A stretch of DNA of 64,000 nucleotides from Candidatus Falkowbacteria bacterium (lineage in GTDB: Bacteria; Patescibacteriota; Patescibacteriia; Patescibacteriales; UBA12075): NCBI GenBank assembly GCA_043801965.1, contig JAZDLN010000027.1:14479-78478 (forward strand). The letters run 5' to 3'. The position numbers were made by a program, and so were the translations under genes. The notes beneath the pieces were generated by a model that was not told where the DNA came from, made no database searches, and saw only the letters and a program-made list of their open reading frames with translations. This document shows, piece by piece, positions 11,003 to 52,764 of this stretch. Position 1 is the first letter of the stretch; each line of letters opens with the position of its first letter.

Positions 11003-11017
11003 GGTTGGTTTTTGTGG

Positions 11018-11248: not shown

Positions 11249-11311
11249 TATTTCCTCCTTCCCGTTTTTCTAGAATAAATATTAAAACAATATTATCACA
11301 ATATATTATTT

Positions 11312-11340: not shown

Positions 11341-11387
11341 TTGTTCATAAATATAAGTTAAATAATTCCAATTTAACAAAAACTTCA

Positions 11388-22881: not shown

Positions 22882-23166
22882 AAAAATATTTTTTACGCCG
22901 TTGACATCATTTTTTTGCGATTTCTTTTCTATTTTTTCGATAACACTGTTGAAAATATTGATATTTAAGTCAGACGCGTTCGTTCGGTTGCCGAGGTAAT
23001 CCTCATCTATCACGAACGATCCATACAGGTTTTTGTTTAAAAAAGAATAAGTGAAAAAAAGAATGATGACGTTGACTGCCGCAATCAGGACGTAAATAGC
23101 TTTGAATATTCTTTTGTCAGTAAATTTGAGGCTAATTTTCATATTTTTTCGTGTTATTATTGCCAA
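22873..23166 (-). CDS. hypothetical single-TM protein, last gene of the pilus operon
   Basis: 97-aa ORF. Overlaps pilO-like by 10 nt and overlaps the convergent GT4 gene by 9 nt. Confidence 0.5.
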   Translation of the reverse strand: MAIITRKNMKISLKFTDKRIFKAIYVLIAAVNVIILFFTYSFLNKNLYGSFVIDEDYLGNRTNASDLNINIFNSVIEKIEKKSQKNDVNGVKNIFSQ

Positions 23167-24288: not shown

Positions 24289-24295
24289 AGTCGGT

Positions 24296-25390: not shown

Positions 25391-25461
25391 AATGATGTGG
25401 CTATGTTTAACGGCAATATTAATATTATACCATAAATCAGTTTTTCGGAACAGGCTTGTTC

Positions 25462-27027: not shown

Positions 27028-27029
27028 GG

Positions 27030-27629: not shown

Positions 27630-27638
27630 GAAGTTAAT

Positions 27639-31703: not shown

Positions 31704-31744
31704 AGAATGGCGCGGGATACATGAACCGCGCTTTTATTACGAGC

Positions 31745-32917: not shown

Positions 32918-32985
32918 TGACCTTTGACCTTTGACCTTTGACCGGTCAAATGTTAAATGCCAAATGTTAAATGTAAATATTTCTT
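32906..32985. repeat. Intercistronic (pilB-pilC) imperfect hairpin of 7-nt units TTTGACC / GGTCAAA-TGTTAAA
   Basis: tttgacc-attgacc-tttgacc-tttgacc-tttgacc | ggtcaaatgttaaatgccaaatgttaaatgtaaat. The central 14-nt tttgaccggtcaaa is a perfect palindrome. Confidence 0.8.
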
Positions 32986-36509: not shown

Positions 36510-36510
36510 G

Positions 36511-36572
36511 ATTTTAGGCGCTAGGCCTTAAGCATTAGTTTGACGGCTGGTTAAAGCCTAAAACCTCAATGC
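36511..36572. repeat. Imperfect hairpin with TTAGGC / GCCTAA units (mraY-ftsW spacer)
   Basis: ttaggc (36515-36520) pairs with gcctaa (36556-36561). Same unit as the 14364-14449 element. Confidence 0.55.
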
Positions 36573-36587
36573 CCGGATAATTAATAA

Positions 36588-37736: not shown

Positions 37737-37746
37737 TTATAAAAAT

Positions 37747-38862
37747 ATGCCAAACAGGAATAAAAGGATAATTTTTAGCGGCGGCGGGACAGGGGGGTCG
37801 GTAACGCCTCTTTTGGCGATCGCCGAAGAGCTCAGAGAACGGGAGATCGGGGGTAACGCGGCTTTTCTTTATGAATTTTTGTGGCTGGGCACGAAAAAGG
37901 GGCCGGAAAAAGCCATGGTGGAGCCGGTTGGCATCGAATTCAAAGCGATCGCGAGCGGCAAATTGCGGCGTTATTTCAGCTGGAAGAATTTTATCGATCC
38001 GTTTTTCGTGGGTTGGGGCTTTTTGCAGTCGCTTTTCATATTGGCGCGCTGGCGGCCGGATCTCATAATCGCCGCCGGCGGATTCGTCTGCGCGCCGGTA
38101 GTTTGGGCGACGTACTTCCTCCGGATCCCGGTCATAATACACCAGCAGGACGCCCGGCCCGGCATGGCTAATAAACTTATGGCCCCGTTCGCGAGAGTCG
38201 TTACGGTTACCATGGAGACATCGCTTGAAGATTACGGAAAAAAGGCCGTCTGGATAGGAAATCCGGTGCGCCGGGAGATAATCCGCTCTAAATACGGAGT
38301 GCATGACACGGCCGGGAAATTTACCTTAAGCGAAGATCTGCCCGTTATCCTGGTTTTGGGCGGCGGTACCGGCGCCGAAGCCATTAACCGGCTGATAGAA
38401 GCTAATATCGAAAAACTGATCACCTTCGCGCAGGTGATCCACCTGACCGGACCGGGCAAATCTCAGGTTTTATGGAAAGTGGATGAGCGATACGCCAAGC
38501 ACTACCGGCGCTTCGAGTTTTTAAGCGTCGAAAGGATGGCCATGGCCTACGCGGTCGCCGATATCGTGGTTTCGCGTTGCGGCATGGGCGTCCTGACCGA
38601 ACTTTCTTATTTAGGCAAGGCTTCGATCTTGATCCCGATGCCTGATTCGCACCAGGAAGACAACGCCCGGGTCTTCGCGGAAAAAGAAGCGGCGGTCGCG
38701 CTTGATCAAAACGGTCTTACCGGCGAGATTCTCCTCGCGAACATAAGGAAACTGCTTTTATACTCGGATTTGCGCGATAAATTGCGCAACAATATCCGGC
38801 AGGTGATCAAAAGAGGCGCTAACGAGAGAATGGTTGAAATAATTGAGGGGATTTTGAAGTAA
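37747..38862 (+). CDS. murG: UDP-GlcNAc:lipid I N-acetylglucosaminyltransferase MurG
   Basis: GGGTGGSVTPLLAIAEEL N-terminal motif, HQQDARPG, C-terminal GT28 domain. Confidence 0.92.
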   Translation: MPNRNKRIIFSGGGTGGSVTPLLAIAEELREREIGGNAAFLYEFLWLGTKKGPEKAMVEPVGIEFKAIASGKLRRYFSWKNFIDPFFVGWGFLQSLFILARWRPDLIIAAGGFVCAPVVWATYFLRIPVIIHQQDARPGMANKLMAPFARVVTVTMETSLEDYGKKAVWIGNPVRREIIRSKYGVHDTAGKFTLSEDLPVILVLGGGTGAEAINRLIEANIEKLITFAQVIHLTGPGKSQVLWKVDERYAKHYRRFEFLSVERMAMAYAVADIVVSRCGMGVLTELSYLGKASILIPMPDSHQEDNARVFAEKEAAVALDQNGLTGEILLANIRKLLLYSDLRDKLRNNIRQVIKRGANERMVEIIEGILK

Positions 38863-38875
38863 GAAGTCAGATCAA

Positions 38876-38927
38876 CCCTCTCCCGCGCGGATGCGGGGGA
38901 GAGGGTGGCCGAAGGCCGGGTGAGGGC
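38876..38927. repeat. REP-like GC-rich element: CCCTCTCC...GGAGAGGG hairpin plus conserved 31-mer
   Basis: gggagagggtggccgaaggccgggtgagggc (38897-38927) is identical to 53108-53138. Confidence 0.85.
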
Positions 38928-38930
38928 AAG

Positions 38931-38963
38931 AAAACAAAAAAAGCCCGCGTATTTTACGCGGGC
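38931..38963 (-). terminator. rho-independent terminator of the small minus-strand gene
   Basis: gcccgcgt-atttt-acgcgggc stem-loop. The plus-strand A-run reads as a T-run on the minus strand. Confidence 0.75.
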
Positions 38964-38999
38964 GGCAGGACACTTATTGTCCCAGTAACCATTTTTCTA

Positions 39000-39176
39000 T
39001 TATTTTTTTTCTTTTAAAAATTTTATTATTGGCGAGATCACTGTTAGCGCCGCAAGTAGTACACCGATGGCCATCGGCACGTACCCGACGGTCAGGTAGC
39101 AGATAGTCCAGAAAAGCGTTGTAACACAGACCGCGGCCACTGTCCAGCCGATCATTCTTTTCTGTAAAGCAGTCAT
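39000..39176 (-). CDS. small 2-TM membrane protein (58 aa)
   Basis: Hand-translated MTALQKRMIGWTVAAVCVTTLFWTICYLTVGYVPMAIGVLLAALTVISPIIKFLKEKK. AGGAGG lies 6 nt upstream of the ATG and a terminator follows. Below the ORF-track cutoff. Confidence 0.6.
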   Translation of the reverse strand: MTALQKRMIGWTVAAVCVTTLFWTICYLTVGYVPMAIGVLLAALTVISPIIKFLKEKK

Positions 39177-39266
39177 GTTTTCCCTCCTATTTGGCTAATG
39201 ATGGATTGGTTTTCAAGGTTCCGTAAAATAATTTTATATATTATCATGAAATAGTTTATTTGTCAA

Positions 39267-40580
39267 ATGAATTGCGATCTCATAATAAAAGCCAAATATG
39301 TTTTACCGATGGATGAAAAACAGTCCGTGATCAGGGACGGCATGGTTGTTGTCGACAAGAATAAGATCGCGGCGGTCGGGACCGAGGCTGAGCTTAAGGA
39401 TAAATATGAAGCCGGAGAAACGATCGACGCGGGAAACGGCATAACCATGCCGGGAATGATAAATACGCATACGCACGCGGCCATGAGTTATTTTCGCGGC
39501 CTGGCCGACGACCTGCCCCTCTCCGATTGGCTAGAGGAACATATCTGGCCGGCAGAGGCGAAATTCGTCAACGCGGATTTTGTCAGGCGGGCCTCGGAAT
39601 TAGCCATACTAGAGATGATCAAATCCGGCATTACCTGCTTTAATGATATGTATTTTTTCGAAGAGGCGGTCGCGTCCGTGGCTAAAACAGCCGGCATCAG
39701 GGCCGTAATCGGAGAGGGTATACTGGACTTTCCGTCGCCCAGCGCGAAAACTCCGGCGGAAGCCATAAAAAAAACCGCCGAGCTTATAAGTGAGTTTAAA
39801 AACGAAGAATTGATCACGGCCGCCTTCGCGCCGCATTCTGTTTACGCCTGCGGCGAAGAATGTCTGGTAAAAATAAAAGAGCTGGCTGAAAAATACAACG
39901 CATTGATCCATATTCATGTCGCCGAAACAAAAAAAGAAGCCGATGATTGCCGGGAAAAATACGGCCGATCGCCGGTTGAATATTTAAACAGTTTAGGATT
40001 TTTATCTCCCCGCGTGATCGCGGCCCACAGCGTCTGGCTTGACGAAAACGATCTTTGTATTTATAAAGAGAGGGGAGTAAAAGTCAGCCATAATCCGGTC
40101 AGCAACATGAAATTGGCTTCCGGGGTAGCGCCGATTCCGGCTATGTTAAAGAAGGGAATAATCGTCGGCTTGGGAACGGACGGCGCGGCCAGCAATAACA
40201 CGCTTGATATGTTTTCGGAAATGCGCGCGGCCTCCCTGCTCCACAAGACCGTTAATATGGACCCGACTGTCCTAAGCGCGAGAGAAACCGTAAAAATGGC
40301 CACTATCGACGCGGCCCGGGTCTTGGGCTTAGACGGTAAAACCGGTTCACTTGAGGCAGGCAAACGGGCCGATTTTATTACGATCAATTTGGATAAACCT
40401 CATCTGGCCCCGATGTATGATCCGTATTCCCACTTAGTGTACTGCGCTAACGCCGCTGATGTGGACAATGTCGTTATTAATGGTAAAATAATAATGCGTA
40501 ATCGGGTAGTTAAGACTATGGAGGAGGAGAGGATTTTGGCCGAAGCCAATGAATTTAGTGAAGATAAAGTAAAAATTTAA
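39267..40580 (+). CDS. mtaD: amidohydrolase, 5-methylthioadenosine/S-adenosylhomocysteine deaminase-like
   Basis: MPGMINTHTHAAMSYFRGLADDLPLSDWLEEHIWPAE metal-binding HxH motif and the overall MtaD/TM0936-like pattern. Confidence 0.78.
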   Translation: MNCDLIIKAKYVLPMDEKQSVIRDGMVVVDKNKIAAVGTEAELKDKYEAGETIDAGNGITMPGMINTHTHAAMSYFRGLADDLPLSDWLEEHIWPAEAKFVNADFVRRASELAILEMIKSGITCFNDMYFFEEAVASVAKTAGIRAVIGEGILDFPSPSAKTPAEAIKKTAELISEFKNEELITAAFAPHSVYACGEECLVKIKELAEKYNALIHIHVAETKKEADDCREKYGRSPVEYLNSLGFLSPRVIAAHSVWLDENDLCIYKERGVKVSHNPVSNMKLASGVAPIPAMLKKGIIVGLGTDGAASNNTLDMFSEMRAASLLHKTVNMDPTVLSARETVKMATIDAARVLGLDGKTGSLEAGKRADFITINLDKPHLAPMYDPYSHLVYCANAADVDNVVINGKIIMRNRVVKTMEEERILAEANEFSEDKVKI

Positions 40581-40735
40581 AATGTAAATCTCAAAATTAA
40601 AAATGACAATGTAAAATTCAAAATTAATGCCGTAAAAGTATTTTGAGCGTTATCTGGTCTAAGACAAAAAATTTTACACTTTGATTTGCCATTTTACATT
40701 TTGAGATTTGATTTTTGCATTTTTGAAAAGCGCCT
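40581..40735. repeat. AT-rich long imperfect inverted repeat (units AATGTAAAAT / ATTTTACATT)
   Basis: For example attttgagattt on the right arm is the exact complement of aaatctcaaaat on the left arm. attttacatt / aatgtaaaat modules occur on both arms. Confidence 0.65.
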
Positions 40736-40768
40736 TTAGTCCCGACTAAATATTACAAATCTATAAAT

Positions 40769-42172
40769 ATGCCAGATAAATCCAAGAAAATACATATCAT
40801 CGGCATCGAGGGCGCGGGGACCTCGGCTTTGGCGCGAATGTACCATAAGCTGGGGCATGCTGTTTCCGGCTCGGATGAGGGCGACCATTTTTATTACGAC
40901 CTGCTTAAGGGCGAAGGAATAGAGGTATTCCATGAATTTAGCGCGGGCAATATCCCAAAGAACGTTGATTTAATAATATATTCCAGCGCTTTCAAGCCGG
41001 AAACGAACGGAGAACTTAAGGCCGCTTTGGCGAGCGGCAAAAAGACCATAACATACGCCGAAGCATTAGGAAATCTTTTGAACGAAAAATTCGGCATCGC
41101 GGTCGCGGGTTCACACGGCAAGACCACGACCACGGCCTGGCTCGCCTTCGTTATGGAAAGATCCGGTTTGTCGCCCTCCGCCATCATCGGCGCGAAAGTG
41201 CCGCAGTTAGGCGGCAGTTCTTTGGCGGGATATTCGGATTATTTCGTTATCGAAGCGGACGAATACCAGAATAAATTCCGGTTCTACAATCCGAAAGCCA
41301 TACTGCTTAATAATATCGATTATGACCACCCGGATTTTTTTCCAACCCCCGAAGATTACGAAAAAGCTTTTATCGAATTCATAAAAAGAATACCGACCAA
41401 AGGATTTCTGATCGCTAACTACGACGATCCGATAATCCGGAAGACGGCTTACGTCAACTGCCGCGGACGCGTGATCACTTACGGCCTAACGGCCGCGGCC
41501 GATTACGTGGCTTACGACATAAGGCAGAGCGAAGAGGGTAAGCAATATTTCCGGGTAAAACTCGGATCGGAGAATCTTACCCTCGAAGACGATGAGGACG
41601 CGGGACCCGATGAATTAGGGGAATTTTCCATCAAGCTGTCCGGGCGGCACAATATTTCAAACGCCCTGGCCGTGATCGCCGCTTCCGTTGAACTTAACAT
41701 CGAACTGGTTAAGATCAGGACCTATCTCGAAGAATTTACGGGCACTAATAGGCGGATGGAGATAATGGGAAAATTCCGGGGCGCGGTCATTATCGACGAT
41801 TACGCCCATCATCCGGCCGAGATCAGGGCCACTCTGGCCGGAGCGCGGGAAGTTTACCGGAACAAAAGACTGATCGTCGTCTTCCATCCTCATACATTCA
41901 CCCGCACCAAGGCGCTGTTGGACGGTTTCGCCGGCAGTTTCGGAGCCGCCGACGAGGTCATAATACTCGATATCTTCGGTTCGGCCCGGGAGAAGCAAGG
42001 CGGCGTCCACTCGCTCGATCTTGTAAAAAAGATTAAAAACCAGCCGGCTAAGCATATCTCCACGCTGGAAGAATGCGAAAAATATCTGCGAGAAAATATC
42101 GGCGCCGGCGACGCGGTAATACTCATGGGCGCGGGCGACGTTTATAAGATAGGGGAGAGATTGGTGAAATAA
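40769..42172 (+). CDS. murC: UDP-N-acetylmuramate--L-alanine ligase
   Basis: IHIIGIEGAGTSALA, GSHGKTTTT P-loop, Mur ligase middle and C-terminal domains. Confidence 0.92.
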   Translation: MPDKSKKIHIIGIEGAGTSALARMYHKLGHAVSGSDEGDHFYYDLLKGEGIEVFHEFSAGNIPKNVDLIIYSSAFKPETNGELKAALASGKKTITYAEALGNLLNEKFGIAVAGSHGKTTTTAWLAFVMERSGLSPSAIIGAKVPQLGGSSLAGYSDYFVIEADEYQNKFRFYNPKAILLNNIDYDHPDFFPTPEDYEKAFIEFIKRIPTKGFLIANYDDPIIRKTAYVNCRGRVITYGLTAAADYVAYDIRQSEEGKQYFRVKLGSENLTLEDDEDAGPDELGEFSIKLSGRHNISNALAVIAASVELNIELVKIRTYLEEFTGTNRRMEIMGKFRGAVIIDDYAHHPAEIRATLAGAREVYRNKRLIVVFHPHTFTRTKALLDGFAGSFGAADEVIILDIFGSAREKQGGVHSLDLVKKIKNQPAKHISTLEECEKYLRENIGAGDAVILMGAGDVYKIGERLVK

Positions 42173-42257
42173 TTTTTAAATTTTATAATTTTTAATTTTT
42201 AAACAAGACGGCTAATCACGATTTTTTAAAAATTACAAAATTTAAAAATTTGTCAGT
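42173..42257. repeat. AT-rich imperfect inverted repeat (murC-murB spacer)
   Basis: aatttttaaattttataatttttaatttttaaa versus tttaaaaattacaaaatttaaaaattt. Confidence 0.6.
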
Positions 42258-43205
42258 ATGTCTATTACGGACAAAATAAAAACCAAAGTGCCTCTGGCGC
42301 CGTATACCACCTTTAAGATCGGCGGTCCGGCGGATTTTTTCGTTGAAATAGAAGCCAAGGACGAGCTCGAAGAAGCTTTCGGCTGGGCCAAAGAAAAAAA
42401 CCTGCCTTTTTATTTTCTGGGCGGTGGCAGTAATATGCTCATAAGCGACAAAGGACTTCGCGGTCTGACCATAAAGCTTTGCAACAAAGGGATTGACGTT
42501 CGCGGAGAGCGGCTTTATTGCGGGGCGGGGGCGAGTCTGGCCCAGGCGGCTCAAGCGGCCACCGGCCATAAATTTTCCGGATTGGAATGGGCCTATGGCA
42601 TTCCCCGGGCGACCGTGGGCGGCGCCATCCGCGGCAATGCCGAAGCCTTCGGTACCAATATGTCGGATCTGACCGAAACTGTGGAGGTTTATAACGCGAA
42701 GAAAAAACGATTCGAAATGTACAGCAAAAAAGACTGCAAATTCGAATATCGGGGAAGCATATTCAAAAAGAACAGCCACCTTCTTATCTGGCAGGGAACG
42801 TTAAAGCTTTTCCCCGCGGACGGAGCGGAAATAGATAATAAAGTCGAAAAGGTATTGGGATTCAGGAACGCCAAACAGCCTAAGCTTCCCAGCGCCGGCT
42901 GCATTTTTAAGAACGTATCCGCCGATTATCTTAAAGAAAGCAACCCTGAACTATATTCCCGGGCAGACCGGGCGATAAGCCCCAGGGGAGAAGTGAGCGC
43001 CGGCTGGCTTATAGATTCGGCGGGTCTTAAAGGCAAGACGATCGGTGGGGCGAAAATCAGCCTTGAGCACGCTAATTTCATAATCAACATCGGCAAAGCC
43101 ACCGCCGAAGATATCGTAACTCTTATTAGCTATACCAAACAGCAGGTTCGGGATAAATTCCGGATACAGCTTGCGGAGGAAATCGGGTATCTGGGGTTCG
43201 AATAG
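42258..43205 (+). CDS. murB: UDP-N-acetylenolpyruvoylglucosamine reductase
   Basis: LAPYTTFKIGGPADFFVE FAD-binding start, GGGSNML, C-terminal MurB domain. Confidence 0.92.
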   Translation: MSITDKIKTKVPLAPYTTFKIGGPADFFVEIEAKDELEEAFGWAKEKNLPFYFLGGGSNMLISDKGLRGLTIKLCNKGIDVRGERLYCGAGASLAQAAQAATGHKFSGLEWAYGIPRATVGGAIRGNAEAFGTNMSDLTETVEVYNAKKKRFEMYSKKDCKFEYRGSIFKKNSHLLIWQGTLKLFPADGAEIDNKVEKVLGFRNAKQPKLPSAGCIFKNVSADYLKESNPELYSRADRAISPRGEVSAGWLIDSAGLKGKTIGGAKISLEHANFIINIGKATAEDIVTLISYTKQQVRDKFRIQLAEEIGYLGFE

Positions 43206-43525: not shown

Positions 43526-44746
43526 ATGGATAATATCTCTATTCTTGATCAAATCATCAACAACCAGAAAGCCGAAGAGGTGGCTAATCTGGATGCTGTC
43601 ATGATCATCAACAATTTATTCGGTGAATTATCCGACCGGGAACGCGACGTATTAATAAGAAGGCATGGATTGCACGGGGACACGAAAGAAACGCTTGAGA
43701 GCATCGGCAGTGCTCACAATTTAACGCGGGAGAGGATCAGGCAAATTGAAACCTCAAGCGTTAAAAAACTGCAATCGCTCGACAATCTTGATGAATATGT
43801 CAGCGGTCTTAAAAAAGTTATCTATCAGCTCATGGAAGAACACGGCGGTTTGATGGAAAAGGAGTACCTGCTTGAACTATTGGTTTCTTTTTCCGCCAGC
43901 AACATCAACACCGAGGATGAAAATAGGGACAAACACAAGAATTACCTGAATTTTCTGATCACGAAACTGTTGCATCAGGAATTTGAAGAAGTTAACAACC
44001 TGAAACATTTTAAGGAATCTTATAAATTAAAGCATCAGACTCTTGAGCACATGGAGGAATTGGCCGAAGAACTGCTTAACGGCATAAAAGAAGCCAAAAA
44101 GATCCATACTACGGAAAATATCATCAAATTTATAACGGAATTGGAGTCTTATGATAAGCATAAAGAAAAACTTAACAGGGAAAACACCATCGATATTTCC
44201 CATGTTTTGGGCTCCGAGCATTTTACGGAAGCGGCCGACCTGGTTAACGACAACAAGCCCCTCTACTCGATGTTAAAAGCTTTTCGCAGGATAGAACAGA
44301 ATAATTTCGGTCACTGGGGGATAAACAATTGGCGGGAAATCAAGCCTAAGACCATTAACGATAAGATCTACCTGGTCCTAAAACACTCGGGCAAGCCGAT
44401 GCATTTTTCAAAAATCGCCGATCGGATCAACGAGGTTAGTTTCGACAATAAGATCGCTAACGCGGCCACGGTACACAACGAACTTATCCTGGACGGCAAG
44501 TACGTTTTAGTCGGCAGAGGGTTATACGGACTTAAAGACTGGGGTTATAAAAGCGGCAACGTATTGGATGTTATCGAAGAAATACTGGAAGAAGCGGGGG
44601 GGCCGTTAACCCGTGATGAATTGATCGACCGCGTACTTAAAAGGCGTCTGGTCAAAAAGGCCACTATTATACTGGCCCTGATGAACAAGGATAAATTCAG
44701 TAAAATTGACGGCCGGTATTTTGTCAGCAAGAAGGAAAATATGTAA
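43526..44746 (+). CDS. sigma-70 region-4-only domain fused to HARE-HTH-like C-terminal domains
   Basis: LSDRERDVLIRRHGL...ETLESIGSAHNLTRERIRQIETSSVKKLQ matches RpoD region 4.2. No region 2 is present. C-terminus has KIYLVLKHSGKPMHFSKIADRI...VLVGRGLYGLKDW (HARE-HTH pattern). Confidence 0.7.
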   Translation: MDNISILDQIINNQKAEEVANLDAVMIINNLFGELSDRERDVLIRRHGLHGDTKETLESIGSAHNLTRERIRQIETSSVKKLQSLDNLDEYVSGLKKVIYQLMEEHGGLMEKEYLLELLVSFSASNINTEDENRDKHKNYLNFLITKLLHQEFEEVNNLKHFKESYKLKHQTLEHMEELAEELLNGIKEAKKIHTTENIIKFITELESYDKHKEKLNRENTIDISHVLGSEHFTEAADLVNDNKPLYSMLKAFRRIEQNNFGHWGINNWREIKPKTINDKIYLVLKHSGKPMHFSKIADRINEVSFDNKIANAATVHNELILDGKYVLVGRGLYGLKDWGYKSGNVLDVIEEILEEAGGPLTRDELIDRVLKRRLVKKATIILALMNKDKFSKIDGRYFVSKKENM

Positions 44747-44770: not shown

Positions 44771-44802
44771 ATACGACCCTTACGTGGGTCGTATTGTTTT
44801 TT
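44771..44802 (+). terminator. rho-independent terminator
   Basis: atacgaccc-ttacgt-gggtcgtat stem-loop plus T-run. Confidence 0.75.
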
Positions 44803-44840
44803 GCGTAGGGAATATGGTATAATATAAATCAGGTAATATT

Positions 44841-46388
44841 ATGATTTCTCTCGATTTATCTCCAATTTACGATTTTTTGAGCTTACCGGCCGACGTATTC
44901 CTCCTAAGGCTCATTATTCTTTTCGGATGGATACCGATATGCGTCATTATTCTCTTTAGCATAAAAGAGATTTGGATGCACTATATCAATATAAAGTGGG
45001 GTTCCGAACAGAAGTTCACTTTGCTGGCGATAGACATACCAAGGGGCAACGCCCAGTCGCCAAAAGCCGTGGAAAATATTTTTACTTATCTGGCCGGCGC
45101 CCAGCAAAGTCTTAATCTTATTGAAAAATATTGGATCGGTAAATTCCAGCTTTCGTTCAGCCTGGAAATAGTCGGCATTGACGGTTATACGCAATTTTTG
45201 ATATATACGCCGGTGATCTTTCGGGACCTGGTCGAATCCGCTATTTACTCGCAATATCCCGACGCTGAGATCACGGAAGTCAACGATTATACCCAGGAAG
45301 CGCCCAAAAGGTTTCCGGATGAAGAATACGATATTTGGGGCGCGGAGTTCATCCAGGTCAAAAGTCCGGCGTATCCGATAAAATTATACGAAGAATTCAT
45401 CCATTTATTCGGCGAACCCGAGGAGCAGTTCAAGGATCCGATGGCTTCGTTGATGGACCTTTATTCAAGCCTTAAGTCCGGAGAGCAGATCTGGTTCCAG
45501 ATAATAATCACCCCGATAGATTTTTCCTGGACCGCGATGTCCGACGGCGAGGTCGGAAAAATATTAGGAGAAAAAAAGAAGGCGGACGGGCTCATCGATA
45601 AAACCATAAAGCTCTTAACCGATTCTCTCTGGTCGATGGGTGAAATAATATATAAAACCGGAGCGACGGAGGTCAAGAAGAAGGAGGACGAATCCCTGAA
45701 AATGTTCAATCTGAAACCGAAAGAAAGAAAGCAGATAGAATCCATCCAGCTTAAATCCGCCAAAGTGGGGTTCGGTTCTAAAATGAGGTTTATTTATTTA
45801 AGCAAGAAAGAGATCATGAACAAGCCGAAGGCCTTAAACGGCTTTGTCGGTTATATGAAGCAATTCGCGGCCCTGGATCTTAATAATTTAAAACCGGATA
45901 CGAAAGTGACCGGCACCTCCGCCCAATATTTTTTTACCGGCCTGCGGCTTAAATGGAAGAAAAACAAGATCATGAGCTATTATGTCAGCCGGGACGGATT
46001 TTCCGGTAAAAGTCCCGGTATTTTAAATATTGAGGAATTGGCGACTATTTGGCACTTTCCGGTTGAGGCGGTCGTAAAGGCGCCCTTGATCCAGAAAACC
46101 CCGGGCCGTAAAGCCGAGCCGCCCATGTCCTTGCCGCTGGTTGAGGAGGGGGCAAGTAACGAAGAGATCTTCAGCCGTCCCGCCAAAGCGAGAGGGATAA
46201 GGCCGCGGCCGGACCAGTTTTCGCAGGATGCTCCGGAGGAGGGGGACCGAAAATTAAAAACCGTCGAATATGGCCGCCGCGATAACGGCCTGGCCGATGA
46301 TATCTTCGGTGAACCCGAAGAAAAACCGGTTAAAAAGGAACCGCCTAACGTAAAAGGCTCCCCGCCGGAAAATTTACCAGTCAGTTAA
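44841..46388 (+). CDS. hypothetical membrane-anchored protein, upstream partner of the TraD/VirD4-like ATPase
   Basis: 515 aa. N-terminal hydrophobic segment(s) (LLRLIILFGWIPICVIILF), then a large soluble domain and a charged tail. No family recognised. Confidence 0.6.
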   Translation: MISLDLSPIYDFLSLPADVFLLRLIILFGWIPICVIILFSIKEIWMHYINIKWGSEQKFTLLAIDIPRGNAQSPKAVENIFTYLAGAQQSLNLIEKYWIGKFQLSFSLEIVGIDGYTQFLIYTPVIFRDLVESAIYSQYPDAEITEVNDYTQEAPKRFPDEEYDIWGAEFIQVKSPAYPIKLYEEFIHLFGEPEEQFKDPMASLMDLYSSLKSGEQIWFQIIITPIDFSWTAMSDGEVGKILGEKKKADGLIDKTIKLLTDSLWSMGEIIYKTGATEVKKKEDESLKMFNLKPKERKQIESIQLKSAKVGFGSKMRFIYLSKKEIMNKPKALNGFVGYMKQFAALDLNNLKPDTKVTGTSAQYFFTGLRLKWKKNKIMSYYVSRDGFSGKSPGILNIEELATIWHFPVEAVVKAPLIQKTPGRKAEPPMSLPLVEEGASNEEIFSRPAKARGIRPRPDQFSQDAPEEGDRKLKTVEYGRRDNGLADDIFGEPEEKPVKKEPPNVKGSPPENLPVS

Positions 46389-46473
46389 AATCCTGATGCG
46401 CTTTTTTAGAATAATTTAATTTTTGCGTGATATAAAGAGTAAAACCGGAGACTTTAAATTCAATCCAAAAAAT

Positions 46474-48564
46474 ATGTCCGATAACGAAGTAACAATTTTC
46501 GCCGAAACCACTTTCAGGAACAAACGCCAGAAATTCGGCATTAAAAAAGATGACCGCCGCCGCCATATGTACCTGATCGGCAAAACCGGCATGGGAAAAT
46601 CCACTATCCTTGAGAATATGATCGTGGAAGATATACGCGCCGGCCGGGGAGTGGCCGTGGTCGACCCGCACGGCGATCTGGCGGAAAAAGTGATCCAGTA
46701 CATTCCTAATAATCGGATCAATGACGTAATTTATTTTAATCCGTCGGACTTTGATTATCCGATCGCCTTTAACGTCGTCGAGCATGTCGAACCGCAGTTC
46801 CGTCATCTTGTGGCCTCGGGTCTTATCGGGGTCTTTAAGAAGCTGTGGGCCGATTCCTGGGGCCCCAGGCTTGAGTATATCCTTCGCAATACTATTTTGG
46901 CTATTTTGGACTATCCGGGCTCGACCCTGTTGGCCGTTATCCGGATGCTATCGGATAAGAAATTCCGCAAAAAAGTCATCGAAAAGATTCAGGATCCGGT
47001 CGTTAAATCATTCTGGGTGAACGAATTCGCCGGTTACGCGGATAAGTTCGCCTCGGAAGCGGTTTCGCCAATACAAAACAAGGTCGGTCAATTCCTCTCC
47101 ACTTCGCTCATAAGAAACATTATCGGTCAGGTAAAATCGACCATAGACATGCGCAAGATCATGGACGAAGGCAAGATATTGATACTTAACCTTTCTAAGG
47201 GCCGGATCGGAGAAGACAGCTCTTCCCTGCTTGGCTCGATGATGATCACGAAGATCCAGCTGGCCGCCATGAGCCGGGTGGATATACCGGAAAATGAGAG
47301 GCGCGATTTCTACCTTTACATCGACGAGTTCCAGAATTTTACGACGGAAAGTTTCGCCAATATCCTGTCCGAAGCCCGGAAATATCGTCTTAACCTTATT
47401 ATGGCCCACCAATACATCGAACAATTGGGTGAAATCGTCAAACCGGCTGTTTTCGGCAATGTCGGCACGCTTATCGTACACCGGGTGGGCGCGGCGGATG
47501 CCGAGGAGCTGGTACAGGAGTTCGCGCCGGTTTTTACCGAAGAGGATATTGTTAATTTGCCCAAATACGAAATATATCTTAAATTGATGATCGATGGGAT
47601 CGCGTCCGAGCCGTTTTCCGCCCGCGGACTGGCGCCGTTATCCAAGGAAGAGGTTGAGGGCAATCTGGAAAAGGTGATAAGCGTCAGCCGGGAAAGATAC
47701 GCCCGGGAAAGAGCGGCCGTGGAAGAGAAGATCGCGCGTTGGCACAGTAACGACGAAGATGAAGAGCGGGAAGAGGGCAATGGCGGAAGGAATATCGCGA
47801 ACAGCGCTCCGGCGGCGCATTTTCACGCTAAAAACGAAAAAACGGACGATGATGACGTTTATAAATTCGCTACCGCTTGTTCGCGCTGCGGCCGGGAAAC
47901 GAAAACTTCATTCAAACCCGACGGCATCCGCCCGGTTTACTGCAAAGACTGTTTATCGCTCGCCCGGGAAGAAAAAAAACGGGAAATAGAAGACAGGAAA
48001 AAGGCCAAAGACGAGGAATTGAGCAGATTGGAAGCCGTATCCGTTCCCGCCCCCGTATATCCCGATCCCGGCGAACGAAGCGGACCGAAGGCGCCCTTTG
48101 TCCGTAATGAACCGGTACGTCCCTCCCCGCTTCCGCCGCCGCGGCCGGATGATCAGAAACCGGAAGAAAACGGCCTGTCGTTACGCGAAGTCTTAAAAAT
48201 AGAGCCGGTAAAGTTCAGTCAGGCCGTAAAGGAAGCCGGGCGCGCGCCCGTAAATTTAAGCCCCGAGCGGAAAAACGTTTTCCCCGCCCGACCCGAAACG
48301 AATTACCGCCAAGACCATCAGCCGCAACCTCGGTACGCGTCCAATAACAGGGGTTACGGACAAAGACCTTACGTTAACCGCGAAGAACCCAGGCGGGATA
48401 ACCGCGCGACCGGCTATAATCAGCGACCGAGACAGAATAATCCTGAGCCTAAACGTGAAAATTACGTCCCGACAAATCGTAATTACCGCGCCGAGAATGA
48501 CCGGAAAGGGGCCGGTAACAACGGAGAGGGAGAGCTAAAGGAGGGAGAGAACATCGAAATGTAA
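46474..48564 (+). CDS. TraD/VirD4-like (T4SS coupling-protein family) ATPase with C-terminal CxxC-x17-CxxC zinc ribbon and disordered tail
   Basis: Walker A GKTGMGKST, Walker B YLYIDEFQNF, ARKYRLNLIMAHQ. CSRC-17 residues-CKDC at 47878-47952. The last ~200 aa are R/P/N/Y-rich. No TM segment. The ATG at 46474 is preferred over the TTG at 46423. Confidence 0.78.
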   Translation: MSDNEVTIFAETTFRNKRQKFGIKKDDRRRHMYLIGKTGMGKSTILENMIVEDIRAGRGVAVVDPHGDLAEKVIQYIPNNRINDVIYFNPSDFDYPIAFNVVEHVEPQFRHLVASGLIGVFKKLWADSWGPRLEYILRNTILAILDYPGSTLLAVIRMLSDKKFRKKVIEKIQDPVVKSFWVNEFAGYADKFASEAVSPIQNKVGQFLSTSLIRNIIGQVKSTIDMRKIMDEGKILILNLSKGRIGEDSSSLLGSMMITKIQLAAMSRVDIPENERRDFYLYIDEFQNFTTESFANILSEARKYRLNLIMAHQYIEQLGEIVKPAVFGNVGTLIVHRVGAADAEELVQEFAPVFTEEDIVNLPKYEIYLKLMIDGIASEPFSARGLAPLSKEEVEGNLEKVISVSRERYARERAAVEEKIARWHSNDEDEEREEGNGGRNIANSAPAAHFHAKNEKTDDDDVYKFATACSRCGRETKTSFKPDGIRPVYCKDCLSLAREEKKREIEDRKKAKDEELSRLEAVSVPAPVYPDPGERSGPKAPFVRNEPVRPSPLPPPRPDDQKPEENGLSLREVLKIEPVKFSQAVKEAGRAPVNLSPERKNVFPARPETNYRQDHQPQPRYASNNRGYGQRPYVNREEPRRDNRATGYNQRPRQNNPEPKRENYVPTNRNYRAENDRKGAGNNGEGELKEGENIEM

Positions 48565-48701
48565 ATCATAGATTTTAGATACCTGATCATCGCGGAATAG
48601 GGGAGTTCCGGAGGATTTTTTTTATTTATGCAAAATTTATATTCCATAAGCACGTTTCCCGTTTTTTATTTTTTTGGAATTTATTCCTGCTTATAGTCCC
48701 T

Positions 48702-49238
48702 TTGTTGGCTTATTTGGCATTGCGCCGGTTCTGGGAAAAGTACGGATTCGGCGGGATTTACAAAAAGATCATAGCCGGAATATTGTTTTTAATCTGGCTT
48801 TTATTCATGCCGAATGCCGCGTACGTGATCACGGATATTAAACACCTGTTTTCCGGATGCGGATTGAATTATTACCAGATCTGTCCGGAAAGCGTCTGGA
48901 CGATTTTTTTCCTTTTCGCTTACGCCTCTTTCGGCTGGGTAGCTTTCGTTTTACTCCTTGATAGCATGAAGAATCTGATCGAAAAGTTCGCGGGCGGGAA
49001 AACCGCCGTGTTTTTTGTTTTTGCCGTTATACCGCTGCTGTCTTTAGGAATTCTTCTTGGCCTGATCGAGCGCTGGAACAGCTGGGATTTTTTTGTCAGT
49101 CCCGGAATAATATTTGCCCATATTTGGGCTTATGGAACGGACCTGAATCGATTCTTAAACTGGCTTCTAACCGCGGTTTTTTTGTATATTTTATACTTTG
49201 GGGGAAATTATCTCTTTGGCGGCAAGAATAAACCCTAG
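48702..49238 (+). CDS. DUF1361-like membrane protein (5' end uncertain)
   Basis: MPNAAYVITDIKHL and a multi-TM pattern. The same frame is open upstream to 48579 and encodes a TM (FLFFWNLFLLIVPLLAY), but it has no ATG/GTG/TTG start before 48702. Confidence 0.6.
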   Translation: MLAYLALRRFWEKYGFGGIYKKIIAGILFLIWLLFMPNAAYVITDIKHLFSGCGLNYYQICPESVWTIFFLFAYASFGWVAFVLLLDSMKNLIEKFAGGKTAVFFVFAVIPLLSLGILLGLIERWNSWDFFVSPGIIFAHIWAYGTDLNRFLNWLLTAVFLYILYFGGNYLFGGKNKP

Positions 49239-49256
49239 AAAAAACTATATATATCT

Positions 49257-50834
49257 ATGGATTATTTAAAAATCGGGCAAGCTGGCGAACTTAAGGGTAG
49301 GGACAGGAAACTTTACCGGGCTTTCGAGATATTGCCGGGAATTTTGTCGTGGACAACGCTTATCGGTTTGACCGTTTTATCGTATTTTCAACCGATATTC
49401 GTCGCCTTTTTTATTATCGCTTTTGATGTTTACTGGCTTCTCCTGGTGCTCTTCCTGGGTATCCATCTTCTGGTTTCTTATTACCGCATGAAGAACGGAT
49501 TATCCGCCGACTGGCGTTTGCTTTGCGAGAATCTGCCGGTACGCGCCATCAGGATCAATGACGCGAGATCGGGACAAGCCGCGGAAAAAGAAATGGTCTG
49601 GACGGACATTCTGCATCTGGTGATCTTTCCCTTCAGCTTCGAAGAGTACGAAGTGATCGCCCAAAGCCTTAAAGCCATTACGGAGAGCGGCTATCCTTTA
49701 AATAAGATCATTCTCGTTCTAGGCGCCGAAGAACGGGCCGGAGCTGACGGCCTCGAACGGGCGGAGAGGGCCAGAAAGGAATTCGGGCCGCTTTTCCGTA
49801 ATTTTCTCGTAACCGTGCATCCGGACGGCCGAGAGGGCGAGATCAAAGGCAAGGGGCCGAATCAGGCCTGGGCCGCGAAAGAGGCTAAAGCCAGGATAAT
49901 CGACCCGGAGGGGATCGATCAGGATAAGATATTGGTAAGCGTTTTCGATATCGACACCGTGATCTATAAGGATTATTTTTACTGCCTGACGCACAGGTTC
50001 CTGACCGCCGACGAACCGCATCGGTCGAGCTATCAGCCGATCCCGGTTTATCACAACAATCTTTGGCAAGCTCCTTTCTTCGCGCGGGTGGCGGCTTCTT
50101 CGAATACTTTCTGGCAGATGATGCAGCAGATCAGGCAGGAAAAACTGGCGACCTACTCATCGCACGCCATGACCTGGCGGACGCTTAATGATATCGGCTT
50201 CTGGTCGACTTCGATGGTCAGCGAGGATTCCAGGATCTTCTGGCACAGTTTTTGCTACTACAACGGCGATTACCGGGTGGTGCCCCTGCACTATCCGGTG
50301 TCGATGGACGTCTGCATGGATGAAACCATGTTCGAGAGCGCCCGGAATCTATATAAGCAGCAGCGCCGCTGGGGGTGGGGGGTGGAGAACGTGCCGTATC
50401 TCCTTTTTAACGCCCTGAAAAACCGGAAAACAATACCGAAAGGAAAATTCTTAAGCCGGATATTCGTGCAGGTTTACGGCTTTCATTCCTGGGCCACTAA
50501 CGCGCTTATTATCGGCGTGATCGGCTGGCTGCCTATGCTATTGGGAGGCGACCGTTTTAACGCGACCGTGCTTTCGACGAATCTGCCGGTGGTCACGAGA
50601 ACGCTTATGATGATCGCCATGTCCGGCTTGATCCTTTCGGCGATCATTTCCACTTTGCTTTTGCCTCCAAGGCCGAAAAATTACGGAGCGGTCAGGAACG
50701 CGGTCATGGTTCTGCAGTGGCTGATCCTGCCGGTAAGCATTATTATTTTCGGCGCGGTTCCGGGACTGGACGCGCAAACCCGGCTCATGTTCGGGAAATA
50801 TCTGGGTTTCTGGGTAACGCCGAAGAGGCGGTAG
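49257..50834 (+). CDS. membrane-embedded family-2 glycosyltransferase (processive type, QxxRW)
   Basis: N- and C-terminal TM bundles around a GT-A domain. DID (VFDIDTV) and QQRRWGWG motifs. Confidence 0.75.
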   Translation: MDYLKIGQAGELKGRDRKLYRAFEILPGILSWTTLIGLTVLSYFQPIFVAFFIIAFDVYWLLLVLFLGIHLLVSYYRMKNGLSADWRLLCENLPVRAIRINDARSGQAAEKEMVWTDILHLVIFPFSFEEYEVIAQSLKAITESGYPLNKIILVLGAEERAGADGLERAERARKEFGPLFRNFLVTVHPDGREGEIKGKGPNQAWAAKEAKARIIDPEGIDQDKILVSVFDIDTVIYKDYFYCLTHRFLTADEPHRSSYQPIPVYHNNLWQAPFFARVAASSNTFWQMMQQIRQEKLATYSSHAMTWRTLNDIGFWSTSMVSEDSRIFWHSFCYYNGDYRVVPLHYPVSMDVCMDETMFESARNLYKQQRRWGWGVENVPYLLFNALKNRKTIPKGKFLSRIFVQVYGFHSWATNALIIGVIGWLPMLLGGDRFNATVLSTNLPVVTRTLMMIAMSGLILSAIISTLLLPPRPKNYGAVRNAVMVLQWLILPVSIIIFGAVPGLDAQTRLMFGKYLGFWVTPKRR

Positions 50835-51107: not shown

Positions 51108-51309
51108 TATATATTGTACCTTACAATGATATTCCGTTGTCTAACCTGGATTCTTGTAAATTCGGCTTATGTAAACAGCAAAAAGAAGTAATAAGTTTAT
51201 AAGGCACCGCAGCGTTTAAGATTTGCGAGAAATTGAATTACGAGAATTCGGGTGAGGCAACGGGATCTATATATACATAACATAAATTATTTTTTGAAGG
51301 GAGAGCGTC

Positions 51310-52764
51310 ATGAAAAAAGAAGATTTGTCGGTAAAGACGGTTGAGACCCTGCGTGTGATGGCCACTGAGGCCAAAATCACCGGACGTTCCAAGATGAACA
51401 AGGCGGCCCTCGTGGAGGCTCTGGCGGCATACTGCGCCAGTATGGCCCCTGAGACCCCCGCACCGACCGAAACCACGGCCCGGATCATTACCAAGCCGGA
51501 AGCGCCGATCGCGCCGCCGGCACCGAAGCCTGCTCTCCCCACTCCTTGGCATGAACTGCTCGCGCAGGCGAGCCGGATCGTACGGGAAAACCCCGGACGG
51601 GAACGGGAGGACTTGGTCGATGCTCTGCACTACGCCCCAGGCGTAGTGGGGCAAATCCCGGAATTGACCAAGGCCGTGGCCACCGCCCTCTCTTACGAGC
51701 GGGCCTTGGAAGCGGCCCGAAATCGGATCGGAAACAACCTCCTGTCGAATAATATTGAGCAGGAGGCGGCCAACATCTCCAAAAGCGTTTTCTGCTCTCC
51801 GGCCCAAGCCAAGAAGGCCATTTTCGAGGTTCAGAATGAAAATGCGGAGAGCAAGAAGGCCAAGGCGGAGGATTTCGATGATCTGTTGAAGCTGACCAGA
51901 AAGTACATTACCGTCAGAATTGCCGGTAATTTCAATCCGGACGTCAAGAACGAGGTTTTCCGGGCCACCCAGCAGGTCGTTGAAGAGTTTTACGGAAGAA
52001 AGCGTCTTGGAAATGAAGAATTCCGCGCCTTCATGGCCGCAGTCCGGAATGTTCTTAAAGAGGTCAGAGCAAAGCTCGCGGCCGATCGTGAACAGGCGGC
52101 CAAAGATAAGGCTGCCCGGGAGGCCGAAGAAAAGGCCAAGGTCGTCGCCCGGGAGAAATCCCGGCAGGAGCGTCTTGCCCTGATCAAGGACCGGATGGTC
52201 TTCGTCCGGCCCATCGGCAGTACCATGAACGGCTTCCCGGTTTTTACGGTCGAGTCCAAGGACGAAGCCGGAATGATCTTTTCCGATCAGGAGAAGAGCC
52301 ACGGCAAGGACCGGGTAACGGTCATGATCGGTGACGAATACTACACCGTCACTCGCGACGGTAAAGGCGGACGGCTGGATTTCGCGCCCACTTCCAACCT
52401 GGAAGCGGCCACCCGCAAACCAGCCCCGGCCCGCAATGCCACCGCCGCTACCCCGGCCCCGGCCCCGGCAATCACTCTGCCGCCGCTCCAGACCCAGATG
52501 TGGGTCACGGCCGCTGACCGGAAAGTCGGCACCATCCGCGCCCATGTTCTTATGGGCGTAAACGGCACCGACGCGAACACCTTGTTCGCGGGTCTCGCCG
52601 GCAAGATCAAAGTCGGCGACTATCTGGCCTGCGTCAACGGCAAAGCCGTTTCCATGCTTTACCGCATGGACGAAAAGGCCTTAGCCGCTATCGGCAACGG
52701 CCGCCAGGCGACCCTGGAGGAGAAAAGGGCCGCCAAAGCCGCTCAGTGTCATTCTGGAGCGTAG
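51310..52764 (+). CDS. hypothetical protein (GC-rich island ORF A) with Rho_N/HeH-like N-terminus
   Basis: 484 aa. AAGGGAG lies upstream of the ATG and third positions are GC-rich. N-terminus LSVKTVETLRVMATEAKITGRSKMNKAALVEAL resembles the Rho_N/SAP-like fold. P/A/T-rich linkers. Otherwise unrecognised. Confidence 0.7.
   Translation: MKKEDLSVKTVETLRVMATEAKITGRSKMNKAALVEALAAYCASMAPETPAPTETTARIITKPEAPIAPPAPKPALPTPWHELLAQASRIVRENPGREREDLVDALHYAPGVVGQIPELTKAVATALSYERALEAARNRIGNNLLSNNIEQEAANISKSVFCSPAQAKKAIFEVQNENAESKKAKAEDFDDLLKLTRKYITVRIAGNFNPDVKNEVFRATQQVVEEFYGRKRLGNEEFRAFMAAVRNVLKEVRAKLAADREQAAKDKAAREAEEKAKVVAREKSRQERLALIKDRMVFVRPIGSTMNGFPVFTVESKDEAGMIFSDQEKSHGKDRVTVMIGDEYYTVTRDGKGGRLDFAPTSNLEAATRKPAPARNATAATPAPAPAITLPPLQTQMWVTAADRKVGTIRAHVLMGVNGTDANTLFAGLAGKIKVGDYLACVNGKAVSMLYRMDEKALAAIGNGRQATLEEKRAAKAAQCHSGA

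Follow-up and report, generated by a model that had tools for sequence, protein, structure and literature searches.

Type IV coupling proteins (T4CPs) that lack a transmembrane domain (TMD) and have a separate membrane partner are a recognised subclass, exemplified by TraJ/TraI of pIP501 (PMC7434980). A 2025 survey of T4CPs reported 5,713 VirD4-type homologues in 2,918 of 3,035 genomes of Patescibacteria, 148 of them near virB4; VirB4 itself was found in 2,417 genomes (~80%), and relaxases were rare (PMC12102498). The authors raised exaptation of the patescibacterial t4cp genes as a possibility and left their role open (PMC12102498). Here we describe a gene of this kind, and its partner, in 64,000 nucleotides (nt) of chromosomal sequence from a metagenome-assembled genome of Candidatus Falkowbacteria bacterium (assembly GCA_043801965.1, contig JAZDLN010000027.1, positions 14,479 to 78,478 of the forward strand), a stretch referred to below as the window. 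A preliminary description, made from the sequence of the window without database searches, had drawn attention to a soluble VirD4-like ATPase, here called B, and to the membrane protein encoded directly upstream of it, here called A, as a possible split coupling-protein module. The analysis suggests that a single ATPase of the VirB4/VirD4 lineage has, on balance probably, been divided into two polypeptides, A and B, which would together make up a membrane-anchored two-subunit translocase. This reading is favoured because of fused relatives of the two proteins, the linkage of their genes, local sequence signals, the topology and fold of A, the motor motifs of B, the genomic context of the fused relatives, and the literature. 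The orphan ATPase was already known; what is new, as far as can be told, is that it has a DUF8128 partner with a VirB4-like fold, that the architecture is split, and that fused relatives exist. No mention of DUF8128 or of PF26449 was found in the literature searched, and neither VirD4 nor T4CP occurs in the main text of the 2023 Cell paper on Southlakia.

The two genes lie on the same strand, and both open reading frames (ORFs) were found where the preliminary description had placed them:

44841..46388, + strand: gene A, from the ORF list, encoding a 515-amino-acid (aa) DUF8128 (PF26449) protein, the putative N-terminal half of the split ATPase
46474..48564, + strand: gene B, encoding a 696-aa soluble ATPase of VirD4/TrwB/HerA type, the putative C-terminal half of the split ATPase

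The listed ORF of B (713 aa) begins with a TTG at 46423. The N-termini of 31 homologues and the 696-aa NCBI gene model place the true start at the ATG at 46474. Proteins 100% identical to A and to B exist at NCBI.

Evidence that A and B correspond to parts of one protein came from four independent methods: a PHROG profile, hhalign, Foldseek and Pfam architecture. The family phrog_5156 of PHROGs (824 positions, function not annotated) matches A at positions 64–291 (E 5.7e-9) and B at positions 407–812 (E 8.6e-68). Residues 17–313 of gp156 of Bacillus phage G (825 aa) were aligned by hhalign with residues 62–411 of A (Prob 89%, E 2.4e-6), and its residues 379–754 were aligned by phmmer with B (E 1e-47). 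The same two programs matched an 833-aa protein of Bacillus methanolicus plasmid pBM69 (BMMGA3_RS16220) to A (hhalign, E 2.3e-6) and to B (phmmer, E 4e-45), and Pfam assigns both DUF8128 and DUF87 to a single chain in a database fragment identical to the N-terminus of this protein. When the predicted structure of A was compared with viral structure predictions (Foldseek, BFVD), matches included gp156 (E 7.6e-17), a protein of phage Slash (E 9e-14) and a 913-aa protein of phage JL (E 5e-13). For gp91 of phage CP-51, the hhalign comparison of the N-terminus with A was not significant, though its C-terminal half matches B. These comparisons indicate that single proteins of 825–913 aa have an N-terminal half homologous to A and a C-terminal half homologous to B.

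The position of the break can also be located. A contains the sequence EELATIWHFP, which is in register with EMSQFIHLP, EEMAAIMRLP and EELSGIVRFP at the junction between the N-terminal domain and the ATPase of the fused proteins, and the N-terminus of B matches the strands that stand ahead of the P-loop in those proteins. Thus, the break point is clean, and the gene order A–B is colinear with the order of the domains.

The fused genes are found in surroundings that are informative about function. On pBM69 and on a 63.6-kb plasmid of B. subtilis, the fused gene is followed by a Replic_Relax gene (PF13814), TcpD/TcpE-family genes, and a gene for a large ATPase of VirB4/TcpF-like type, so that it occupies the place of the coupling protein in a Gram-positive conjugation locus. 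In phage CP-51, the fused gene lies 5' of a Replic_Relax gene. In phage G, the gene for gp156 lies 3' of a TrbL_4 (VirB6-like) gene and of the gene for the VirB4-like gp155. The row of gp153 (TrbL_4/VirB6-like), gp155 (VirB4-like) and gp156 (the fusion) at 86975–98123 of the phage G genome resembles part of a type IV secretion system (T4SS), which is unexpected for a phage.

The linkage of the two genes was examined in 83 loci, comprising 80 GTDB species representatives and three loci fetched by protein identity. Gene-neighbourhood statistics, a check that the preliminary description had proposed, placed B directly after A, in the same orientation, in 58 of the 76 evaluable Patescibacteria loci, each from a different species. 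The linkage is kept for homologues of A at 35–37% identity, where SecDF is encoded upstream, and in searches begun from B, where the contexts differ again (YceG and ribosomal genes, or hydrogenase genes). Such pairing far exceeds what chance would give. The preliminary description had considered the pair as a possible minimal translocation device; far from being a rarity of this genome, the two genes belong to the strongly conserved core of Patescibacteria, for which T4CP-like orphan genes had already been published (PMC12102498).

Protein A belongs to a family without an assigned function. Its 100% identical database protein and nearly all listed homologues carry the precomputed Pfam annotation PF26449.1 (DUF8128), while searches of a local Pfam release older than the DUF8128 model and of NCBIfam returned no match for A, and a permissive Pfam scan of 38 A homologues returned noise only. 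Its size is considerable: one search gave more than 2,000 homologues of A at 52–60% identity, a second one gave 1,683 clusters at 50% identity, and the named relatives all come from Patescibacteria, save some obviously mislabelled bins. The features of A are as follows:

44898..44978, + strand: predicted single transmembrane helix, about aa 20–46 (hydropathy peak 2.7; helix at 17–56 in the AlphaFold2 model)
45015..46055, + strand: folded, predicted cytoplasmic DUF8128 domain, aa 59–405, alpha/beta (AlphaFold2, and homology to the fused ATPases)
46029..46136, + strand: junction motif IEELATIWHFPvEaVVKAPLIQKtPGRKAEPPMSLP (conservation in homologues)
46353..46385, + strand: C-terminal short motif KGxPPxNLP[FV], located 3' of a variable disordered linker (aa 411–505)

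The helix is flanked by a net charge of −3 before and +1 after it, and the same pattern of helix and charge is repeated in 33 of 38 homologues, with mean charges of −1.9 and +1.0. Since an acidic segment precedes the helix and a basic segment follows it, these data indicate an N-out/C-in topology, with the large domain in the cytoplasm. Invariant columns in the junction motif are E399, A401, W404, H405, P407, V412, A414, P415, K419 and P428. In the C-terminal motif, P509 and P513 are invariant and N511 and L512 are conserved in at least 90% of homologues; this motif may be a docking peptide.

The AlphaFold2 model of A has a mean predicted local distance difference test (pLDDT) score of 73, with values mostly of 80–94 within the fold and below 50 across the linker. 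When this model was compared with the PDB using Foldseek, the best 14 matches were all to TrwK, the VirB4 protein of R388 (E 2.6e-4 to 5e-3, probability about 1, TM-score about 0.3). No other P-loop ATPase was among the PDB matches, and the match is therefore taken to lie in the N-terminal domain that is specific to VirB4. The model also matches gp155 of phage G in BFVD (E 4.7e-6), a protein of VirB4 type by Pfam, with AAA_10 and P-loop_TraG in its C-terminal part. A thus appears to resemble the N-terminal domain of VirB4; the likeness is at the level of the fold, and homology is not claimed. A separate idea, that A is a degenerate paralogue of B, was rejected: an hhalign comparison of the A family with the B family was blank, and the lack of other P-loop ATPases among the fold matches of A also counters it.

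Protein B carries the following features:

46579..46605, + strand: Walker A motif (P-loop) GKTGMGKST, aa 36–44, with G36, K37, T38, G39, G41, K42 and T44 invariant in 32 homologues
47311..47328, + strand: Walker B motif YLYIDE, aa 280–285, followed by the conserved ARKYRLNLIMAHQ (aa 301–313) (homologue alignment)
47878..47952, + strand: treble-clef zinc finger CxxC-x17-CxxC, aa 469–493 (PF23477, zf_Tbcl_2, 42.3 bits; TIGR04272, 43.2 bits)
48175..48216, + strand: tail motif LSLxEaLkxxPVxF, aa 568–581, with L570 and F581 conserved in at least 90% of homologues in an otherwise variable tail
48532..48561, + strand: acidic C-terminal motif ELkEGEeIxF/M (homologue consensus ExELxEGEEIxF at the extreme C-terminus)

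The motifs that had been quoted as hallmarks of a coupling protein (GKTGMGKST, YLYIDEFQNF and ARKYRLNLIMAHQ) are all present and invariant or nearly so in the 32 homologues; around the Walker B motif and ARKYRLNLIMAHQ, the invariant residues are D284, E285, R302, K303 and Q313. B exceeds the cut-offs of the Pfam models TrwB_AAD_bind (44.6 bits, cut-off 20.5, aa 40–356 of the 713-aa ORF), DUF87 (30.4 bits, cut-off 23.2) and T4SS-DNA_transf (23.4 bits, cut-off 20.1), and scores 23.4 bits against TraG-D_C. Scores against the T4CP models of NCBIfam are far under their cut-offs (SXT_TraD 42.5 against 366, conju_CD1115 35.5 against 250, TOL TraD 30.1 against 647). A search of PDB sequences with a profile of B recovered TrwB only (E 1.6e-6), and a tblastn search with TrsK of pGO1 did not recover B. 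As for the ATPase of VirB4, the A+B pair has no AAA_10 match and scores 17 bits against TIGR00929, whose cut-off is 643; VirB4 is not among the top 50 structural matches of B (Foldseek). For the AlphaFold2 model of B (aa 1–440), the matches to HerA, Cagbeta, DotL and TrwB are of similar strength (E 1e-8 to 1e-7). In this model, about 35 residues forming three short strands precede the P-loop, and helices occupy aa 107–217 between the Walker A and Walker B motifs, with pLDDT there below 50.

Beyond the motor domain, B continues with a linker, the zinc finger, a charged helix and then 200 aa of disordered tail, in which Arg, Asn, Pro and Tyr are abundant. All four cysteines of the finger are invariant, and the finger is duplicated in some homologues (P0136, P0170). 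Neither the zinc finger nor the Arg/Asn/Tyr-rich tail is carried by any T4CP compared here. The acidic C-terminal motif resembles the TraM-binding acidic C-terminal tail of F-plasmid TraD. No segment with the strength of a membrane helix was found in B by Kyte-Doolittle hydropathy (19-residue window); one of 32 homologues has such a segment. Homologues of B are ~70–78% identical over the full length and 82% identical in the ATPase domain, in species where A is 57% identical.

A total of 336 plasmids carry B-like ATPases; their hosts are chiefly Streptomyces, Bacillus, Staphylococcus, Sulfolobus and haloarchaea. The closest relative outside Patescibacteria is a 395-aa, ATPase-only protein of the Sulfitobacter mediterraneus plasmid NZ_CP081110.1 (6992–8179; 42% identity, E about 1e-105); its gene adjoins transposases, with no DUF8128, zinc finger or T4SS gene beside it. 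Among PADLOC models, mad8 of the MADS defence system matches B at 61 bits (aa 24–369), above the 44.6 bits of TrwB_AAD_bind, and HerA models match at 43 bits. This suggests that the clade of ATPases to which B belongs has also been recruited into defence systems. No NurA, SIR2 or DUF4297 partner gene was found beside B using Pfam.

These data bear on what had first been said of the two proteins. The description of B as an ATPase with coupling-protein hallmarks and without N-terminal transmembrane helices is upheld by the near-invariant motifs, the above-threshold TrwB_AAD_bind match and the hydropathy profile, and the suggestion of a split module gains support from the proteins that carry both halves (phrog_5156, gp156 and the pBM69 protein). 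The account of A needs to be changed. Several N-terminal hydrophobic helices had been proposed, and only one is found; its large domain, described as unassigned, is DUF8128. A had been envisaged as a membrane anchor or a channel: the anchor stands, and one helix per subunit is no evidence of a channel. Finally, A had been seen as an addition to a coupling protein, whereas it appears to be the N-terminal domain of the same ATPase family.

The sequences between and around the two genes were inspected for signs of transcriptional organisation. The relevant features are:

43526..44746, + strand: 406-aa protein with a sigma-70 region 4 (aa 33–83) and a HARE-HTH domain (aa 277–339) (Pfam matches)
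44771..44805, + strand: hairpin resembling a terminator (ATACGACCC-loop-GGGTCGTAT) with a T-run after it, in the interval from the sigma/HARE gene to A (read by eye)
44815..44823, + strand: extended −10 promoter-like element TGgTATAAT, 18 nt 5' of the ATG of gene A (consensus match only)
48593..48625, + strand: terminator-like hairpin and T-run 3' of gene B (consensus scan, weak)
48702–50834, + strand: DUF1361 gene and family 2 glycosyltransferase gene, after B

The palindrome at 44771–44805 was picked up on the minus strand by the consensus scan and is suggestive only. No hairpin and no terminator can be read in the 85-nt spacer between A and B. A bicistronic A–B unit is therefore plausible; it is not proven, because the promoter and terminator consensus scans gave overall counts at chance level, and the boundaries of the operon are a by-eye reading. 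With a hairpin and a promoter-like element in between, the sigma/HARE gene of the window reads as a transcription unit apart from A.

The conserved block may be longer than the A–B pair. The steadiest neighbour of the DUF8128 gene is a Sigma70_r4/HARE-HTH gene, found immediately 5' of it and in the same orientation in 59 of 72 evaluable loci, some of which have B unlinked. Its product could be a DNA-binding accessory of the A–B module, or the arrangement could be mere conserved synteny; the HARE-HTH domain of the 406-aa protein resembles the delta subunit of RNA polymerase. On the 3' side of the ATPase gene, tblastn found the DUF1361 membrane protein in 43 of 81 loci and a multi-pass Glyco_trans_2_3 glycosyltransferase in 23.

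In the window, the block follows division and cell-wall genes: mraY, ftsW, murG, murC and murB (35460–43205, + strand) lead straight into the sigma/HARE gene and A–B. In many bacteria, this slot holds ftsQ-ftsA-ftsZ. A 437-aa ORF (39267–40580), amidohydrolase-like by eye, sits between murG and murC. As the preliminary description had stated, VirB4, VirB6 and relaxase families were not found in the window by Pfam searches, which covered part of the gene-like ORFs of at least 150 aa. Its isolated pilin-like gene at 4280–4675 is likewise real: the 131-aa product matches T4SS_pilin (PF18895, 35.8 bits), it follows a LexA gene (Peptidase_S24 and LexA_DNA_bind; the two span 3541–4675, + strand), and no other T4SS gene was found in the 64 kb. 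The proposed link to competence through adjacent pilus machinery is not supported: nothing found here connects the pair with competence, and the type IV pilus cluster is ~10 kb away on the opposite strand. That cluster (23157–34705, − strand) encodes a PilO-like protein, PilM, a 521-aa protein with a PilX_N domain, PilC (T2SSF) and PilB (T2SSE and MshEN), and includes, at 27639–31703, a 1,354-aa giant pilin-like protein with an N-terminal prepilin methylation motif.

Elsewhere, the window holds a MacAB-like ABC system, MreB and glycosyltransferases; the pair thus stands among housekeeping genes and not in a mobile element. A DUF4012 protein with family 4 glycosyltransferase (GT4) neighbours is encoded at 11388–13337 (+ strand), beside MreB; in loci of the L044 type (10582–13131), DUF4012/GT4 genes lie directly 3' of the DUF8128 gene, and the ATPase gene is missing there. 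At 51238–52764, a 484-aa plus-strand ORF rich in Ala, Lys and Glu (weak, sub-threshold Rho_N match) is overlapped nearly wholly by a 435-aa minus-strand ORF; GC content is 0.52–0.53 in this interval and about 0.43–0.50 over A–B.

The properties of A and B lead to a model for how the pair could work. A would provide a single membrane anchor and a cytoplasmic DUF8128 N-terminal domain, and B would provide the RecA-like motor, whose catalytic motifs are intact, together with the zinc finger and the disordered charged tail. A would bind B in the way that the two domains pack in the fused proteins; that the two are physical partners is very likely. Six copies of A and six of B would then form a ring at the cytoplasmic face of the membrane, held there by the six A helices, and a membrane-anchored hexameric translocase of this kind is a likely form of the complex. 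ATP hydrolysis by the ring would move a polymer toward or across the membrane; this would most probably be nucleic acid, held by the zinc-finger tail. Taken by itself, the proposal that the translocase acts on nucleic acid has about an even chance of being correct. The conserved C-terminal peptides of A and B would dock further partners.

Several observations weigh against parts of this model. The substrate is drawn only from the behaviour of the family and from the zinc finger. The resemblance of A to the N-terminal domain of VirB4 is at fold level only (TM about 0.3, E about 3e-4): hhalign comparison of the A family with Agrobacterium VirB4, TrsD and TrsE of pGO1, the TcpF-like VirB4 and gp155 found nothing, as did an hmmsearch of PDB sequences with the A family, and because these sequence-profile comparisons were all negative, the link between A and VirB4 is a fold comparison only. 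Confidence in the model of B is low (pLDDT 62), and HerA and T4CPs come out level in its Foldseek ranking. B was not found within 8 kb of A at 18 of the 76 evaluable loci. Other observations speak against coupling to a T4SS. Searches with tblastn or precomputed Pfam found neither a relaxase nor T4SS (VirB4) genes within 7–10 kb on either side in 87 related loci, the VirB4 search extending to 8 kb; the context of the pair consists of housekeeping genes (division and cell wall/mur genes, SecDF, ribosomal genes); and the conservation of B (82% in the ATPase domain) is far above what is usual for T4SS parts. Lastly, the t4cp homologue of S. epibionticum is reported to be non-essential, and the T4SS genes of this species to be essential (PMC12102498).

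As to the cellular role of the pair, one possibility, weakly favoured and standing a little short of an even chance, is that the pair is the coupling or translocation ATPase of a Patescibacteria T4SS encoded elsewhere in the genome. This role is favoured because the fused relatives occupy T4SS-type contexts and because the T4SS clusters of Patescibacteria rarely have a neighbouring T4CP. The prevalence of the genes was also considered as an argument and rejected as non-discriminating: T4CP-like genes are found in 96% of genomes and VirB4 in 80%, but with ~1.9 copies per genome and ~80% detection per copy in incomplete metagenome-assembled genomes, the expected value is 1 − 0.2^2 = 0.96.

A role independent of any T4SS would make the same two-subunit machine a housekeeping membrane-anchored translocase of nucleic acid, reached by exaptation; we consider this somewhat less probable, though close behind the first role. 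Candidate jobs would be the handling of the chromosome or other DNA at division, or import or export of DNA or RNA without a VirB4 channel. In favour of such a role are the extreme conservation of B, the housekeeping context of the pair, the reported non-essentiality and the novel tail. The ATPase domain of B is 82% identical across species in which A is 57% identical; the genes occupy a core chromosomal site directly after mraY-ftsW-murG-murC-murB, or elsewhere next to SecDF or ribosomal genes, and VirB4, VirB6 and relaxase were not found nearby; both the suggestion of exaptation and the non-essentiality in S. epibionticum have been published (PMC12102498); and the zinc finger and Arg/Asn/Tyr-rich tail are absent from all T4CPs compared here. 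However, the fused relatives with informative context are all in conjugation-type clusters, ~80% of Patescibacteria genomes have a VirB4-based T4SS, mostly without a neighbouring T4CP, and a complex with one helix per subunit has no obvious channel of its own. Nor is a substitute for FtsK obviously needed, as at least one Saccharibacterium has a gene annotated as ftsK (TM7x_00370; PMC10768705). The idea that B replaces FtsK was itself examined and is weakened both by this annotation and by the lack of any FtsK-family match in B: neither FtsK_SpoIIIE nor Ftsk_gamma matched in Pfam and NCBIfam searches at E<=0.01.

A more specific proposal is that the pair is the motor of a nucleic-acid uptake system specific to Patescibacteria, in which the ring would grip host-derived DNA or RNA by the zinc-finger tail and pull it inward; we regard this as improbable. 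If it were true, uptake could proceed via the pilus-bearing, relaxase-less T4SS or independently of it and would help to explain how these bacteria feed on hosts without nucleotide synthesis of their own, and the pair would be the survivor of a split or intermediate state linking VirB4 with VirD4.

It is less probable still that A and B are merely syntenic neighbours that work separately; B would then be a HerA/T4CP-like ATPase that is soluble, and the membrane protein A would be unrelated to it. The 24% of evaluable loci that have A without B nearby are consistent with this view, as is the tendency of streamlined Patescibacteria to keep synteny by descent, of which the likewise conserved sigma/HARE neighbour may be an instance. 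Yet four independent methods match the two proteins to the two halves of single polypeptides, with the order preserved, and the adjacency of A and B outlasts a full turnover of the surrounding genes. The least probable explanation, a HerA/MADS-type anti-phage or conflict system or the remnant of an integrated conjugative element or prophage, could draw on the matches of B to mad8 (61 bits) and HerA models (43 bits), on the HerA defence complexes among its top structural matches, and on the phages and plasmids that carry the nearest fused relatives, but Pfam scans found no nuclease, SIR2, methyltransferase, integrase, relaxase or other mobile-element gene adjoining the pair, base composition shows no anomaly at 44–48.5 kb, the catalytic motifs are all intact, so that the genes are not decayed, and a pair that is Patescibacteria-wide at very high identity, of a T4CP-like class found in 2,918 of 3,035 genomes (PMC12102498), has the opposite of the patchy distribution of defence and mobile genes.

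If A and B are indeed the halves of one ATPase, the near-universal orphan T4CP-like ATPase of Patescibacteria gains a partner from the uncharacterised family DUF8128. These bacteria account for much of bacterial diversity; they are attached to other microbes and have no nucleotide synthesis of their own. We know of no account of the cargo of their relaxase-less T4SS, which is essential in the one genetically tractable species. The pair would supply a membrane anchor, a topology, conserved putative docking motifs and a candidate nucleic-acid-binding module. What looked like an oddity of annotation thereby yields testable predictions: formation of a complex, A-dependent recruitment of B to the membrane, and nucleic-acid binding by the zinc-finger tail. 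DUF8128, which is also present in Bacillus plasmids and phages, would obtain a structural context as a VirB4-like N-terminal domain of ATPases in the T4CP position.

Among known systems, the fused DUF8128+DUF87 ATPases are the closest to the pair. Each of their domains has its homologue in the pair, the order is unchanged, and the junction motif ELAxxxHxP is shared. The fused ATPases differ in being single polypeptides without a membrane helix or a zinc finger, encoded on mobile elements beside Replic_Relax and Tcp/VirB4 or TrbL genes; the pair in the window is split, membrane-anchored and chromosomal, with no T4SS gene near it, and B is only 25–30% identical to the ATPase halves of the fused proteins. 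HerA is comparable to B in that B exceeds the DUF87 threshold and HerA structures are among its best fold matches. However, B lacks an N-terminal domain of the size of the HAS-barrel, and the TrwB family outscores HerA by sequence. With VirD4/TrwB, B shares an above-threshold TrwB_AAD_bind match, TrwB as its best PDB sequence match and the Walker A and B motifs; the helices modelled at low confidence between these motifs may correspond to the all-alpha domain inserted in T4CPs. In contrast to VirD4/TrwB, B has no N-terminal TMD and no linkage to a relaxase or T4SS, and it adds the zinc finger and disordered tail.

The parallel with VirB4, represented by TrwK of R388, lies in a two-tier arrangement of an N-terminal domain and a RecA-like ATPase, with the fold of A matching TrwK. 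Plasmid pGO1 provides a precedent for the split, as TrsD is a separate protein resembling the N-terminal domain of VirB4 that is encoded just 5' of VirB4 (TrsE). In contrast, B is nearer to TrwB and HerA than to VirB4, and A has no sequence-profile similarity to VirB4, TrsD or TrsE. Finally, the two-partner T4CPs (TraJ/TraI of pIP501 and TraG-TraJ pairs) share with the present locus a TMD-less ATPase gene beside a membrane-protein gene thought to recruit the ATPase, and B and A fit the description of this subclass, with a soluble T4CP-like ATPase encoded beside a co-occurring membrane protein. One important difference is that the partners in those systems are small, consist mostly of membrane helices and are encoded within conjugation operons, whereas A, at 515 aa, has a single helix, and its large cytoplasmic domain would itself be part of the ancestral ATPase.

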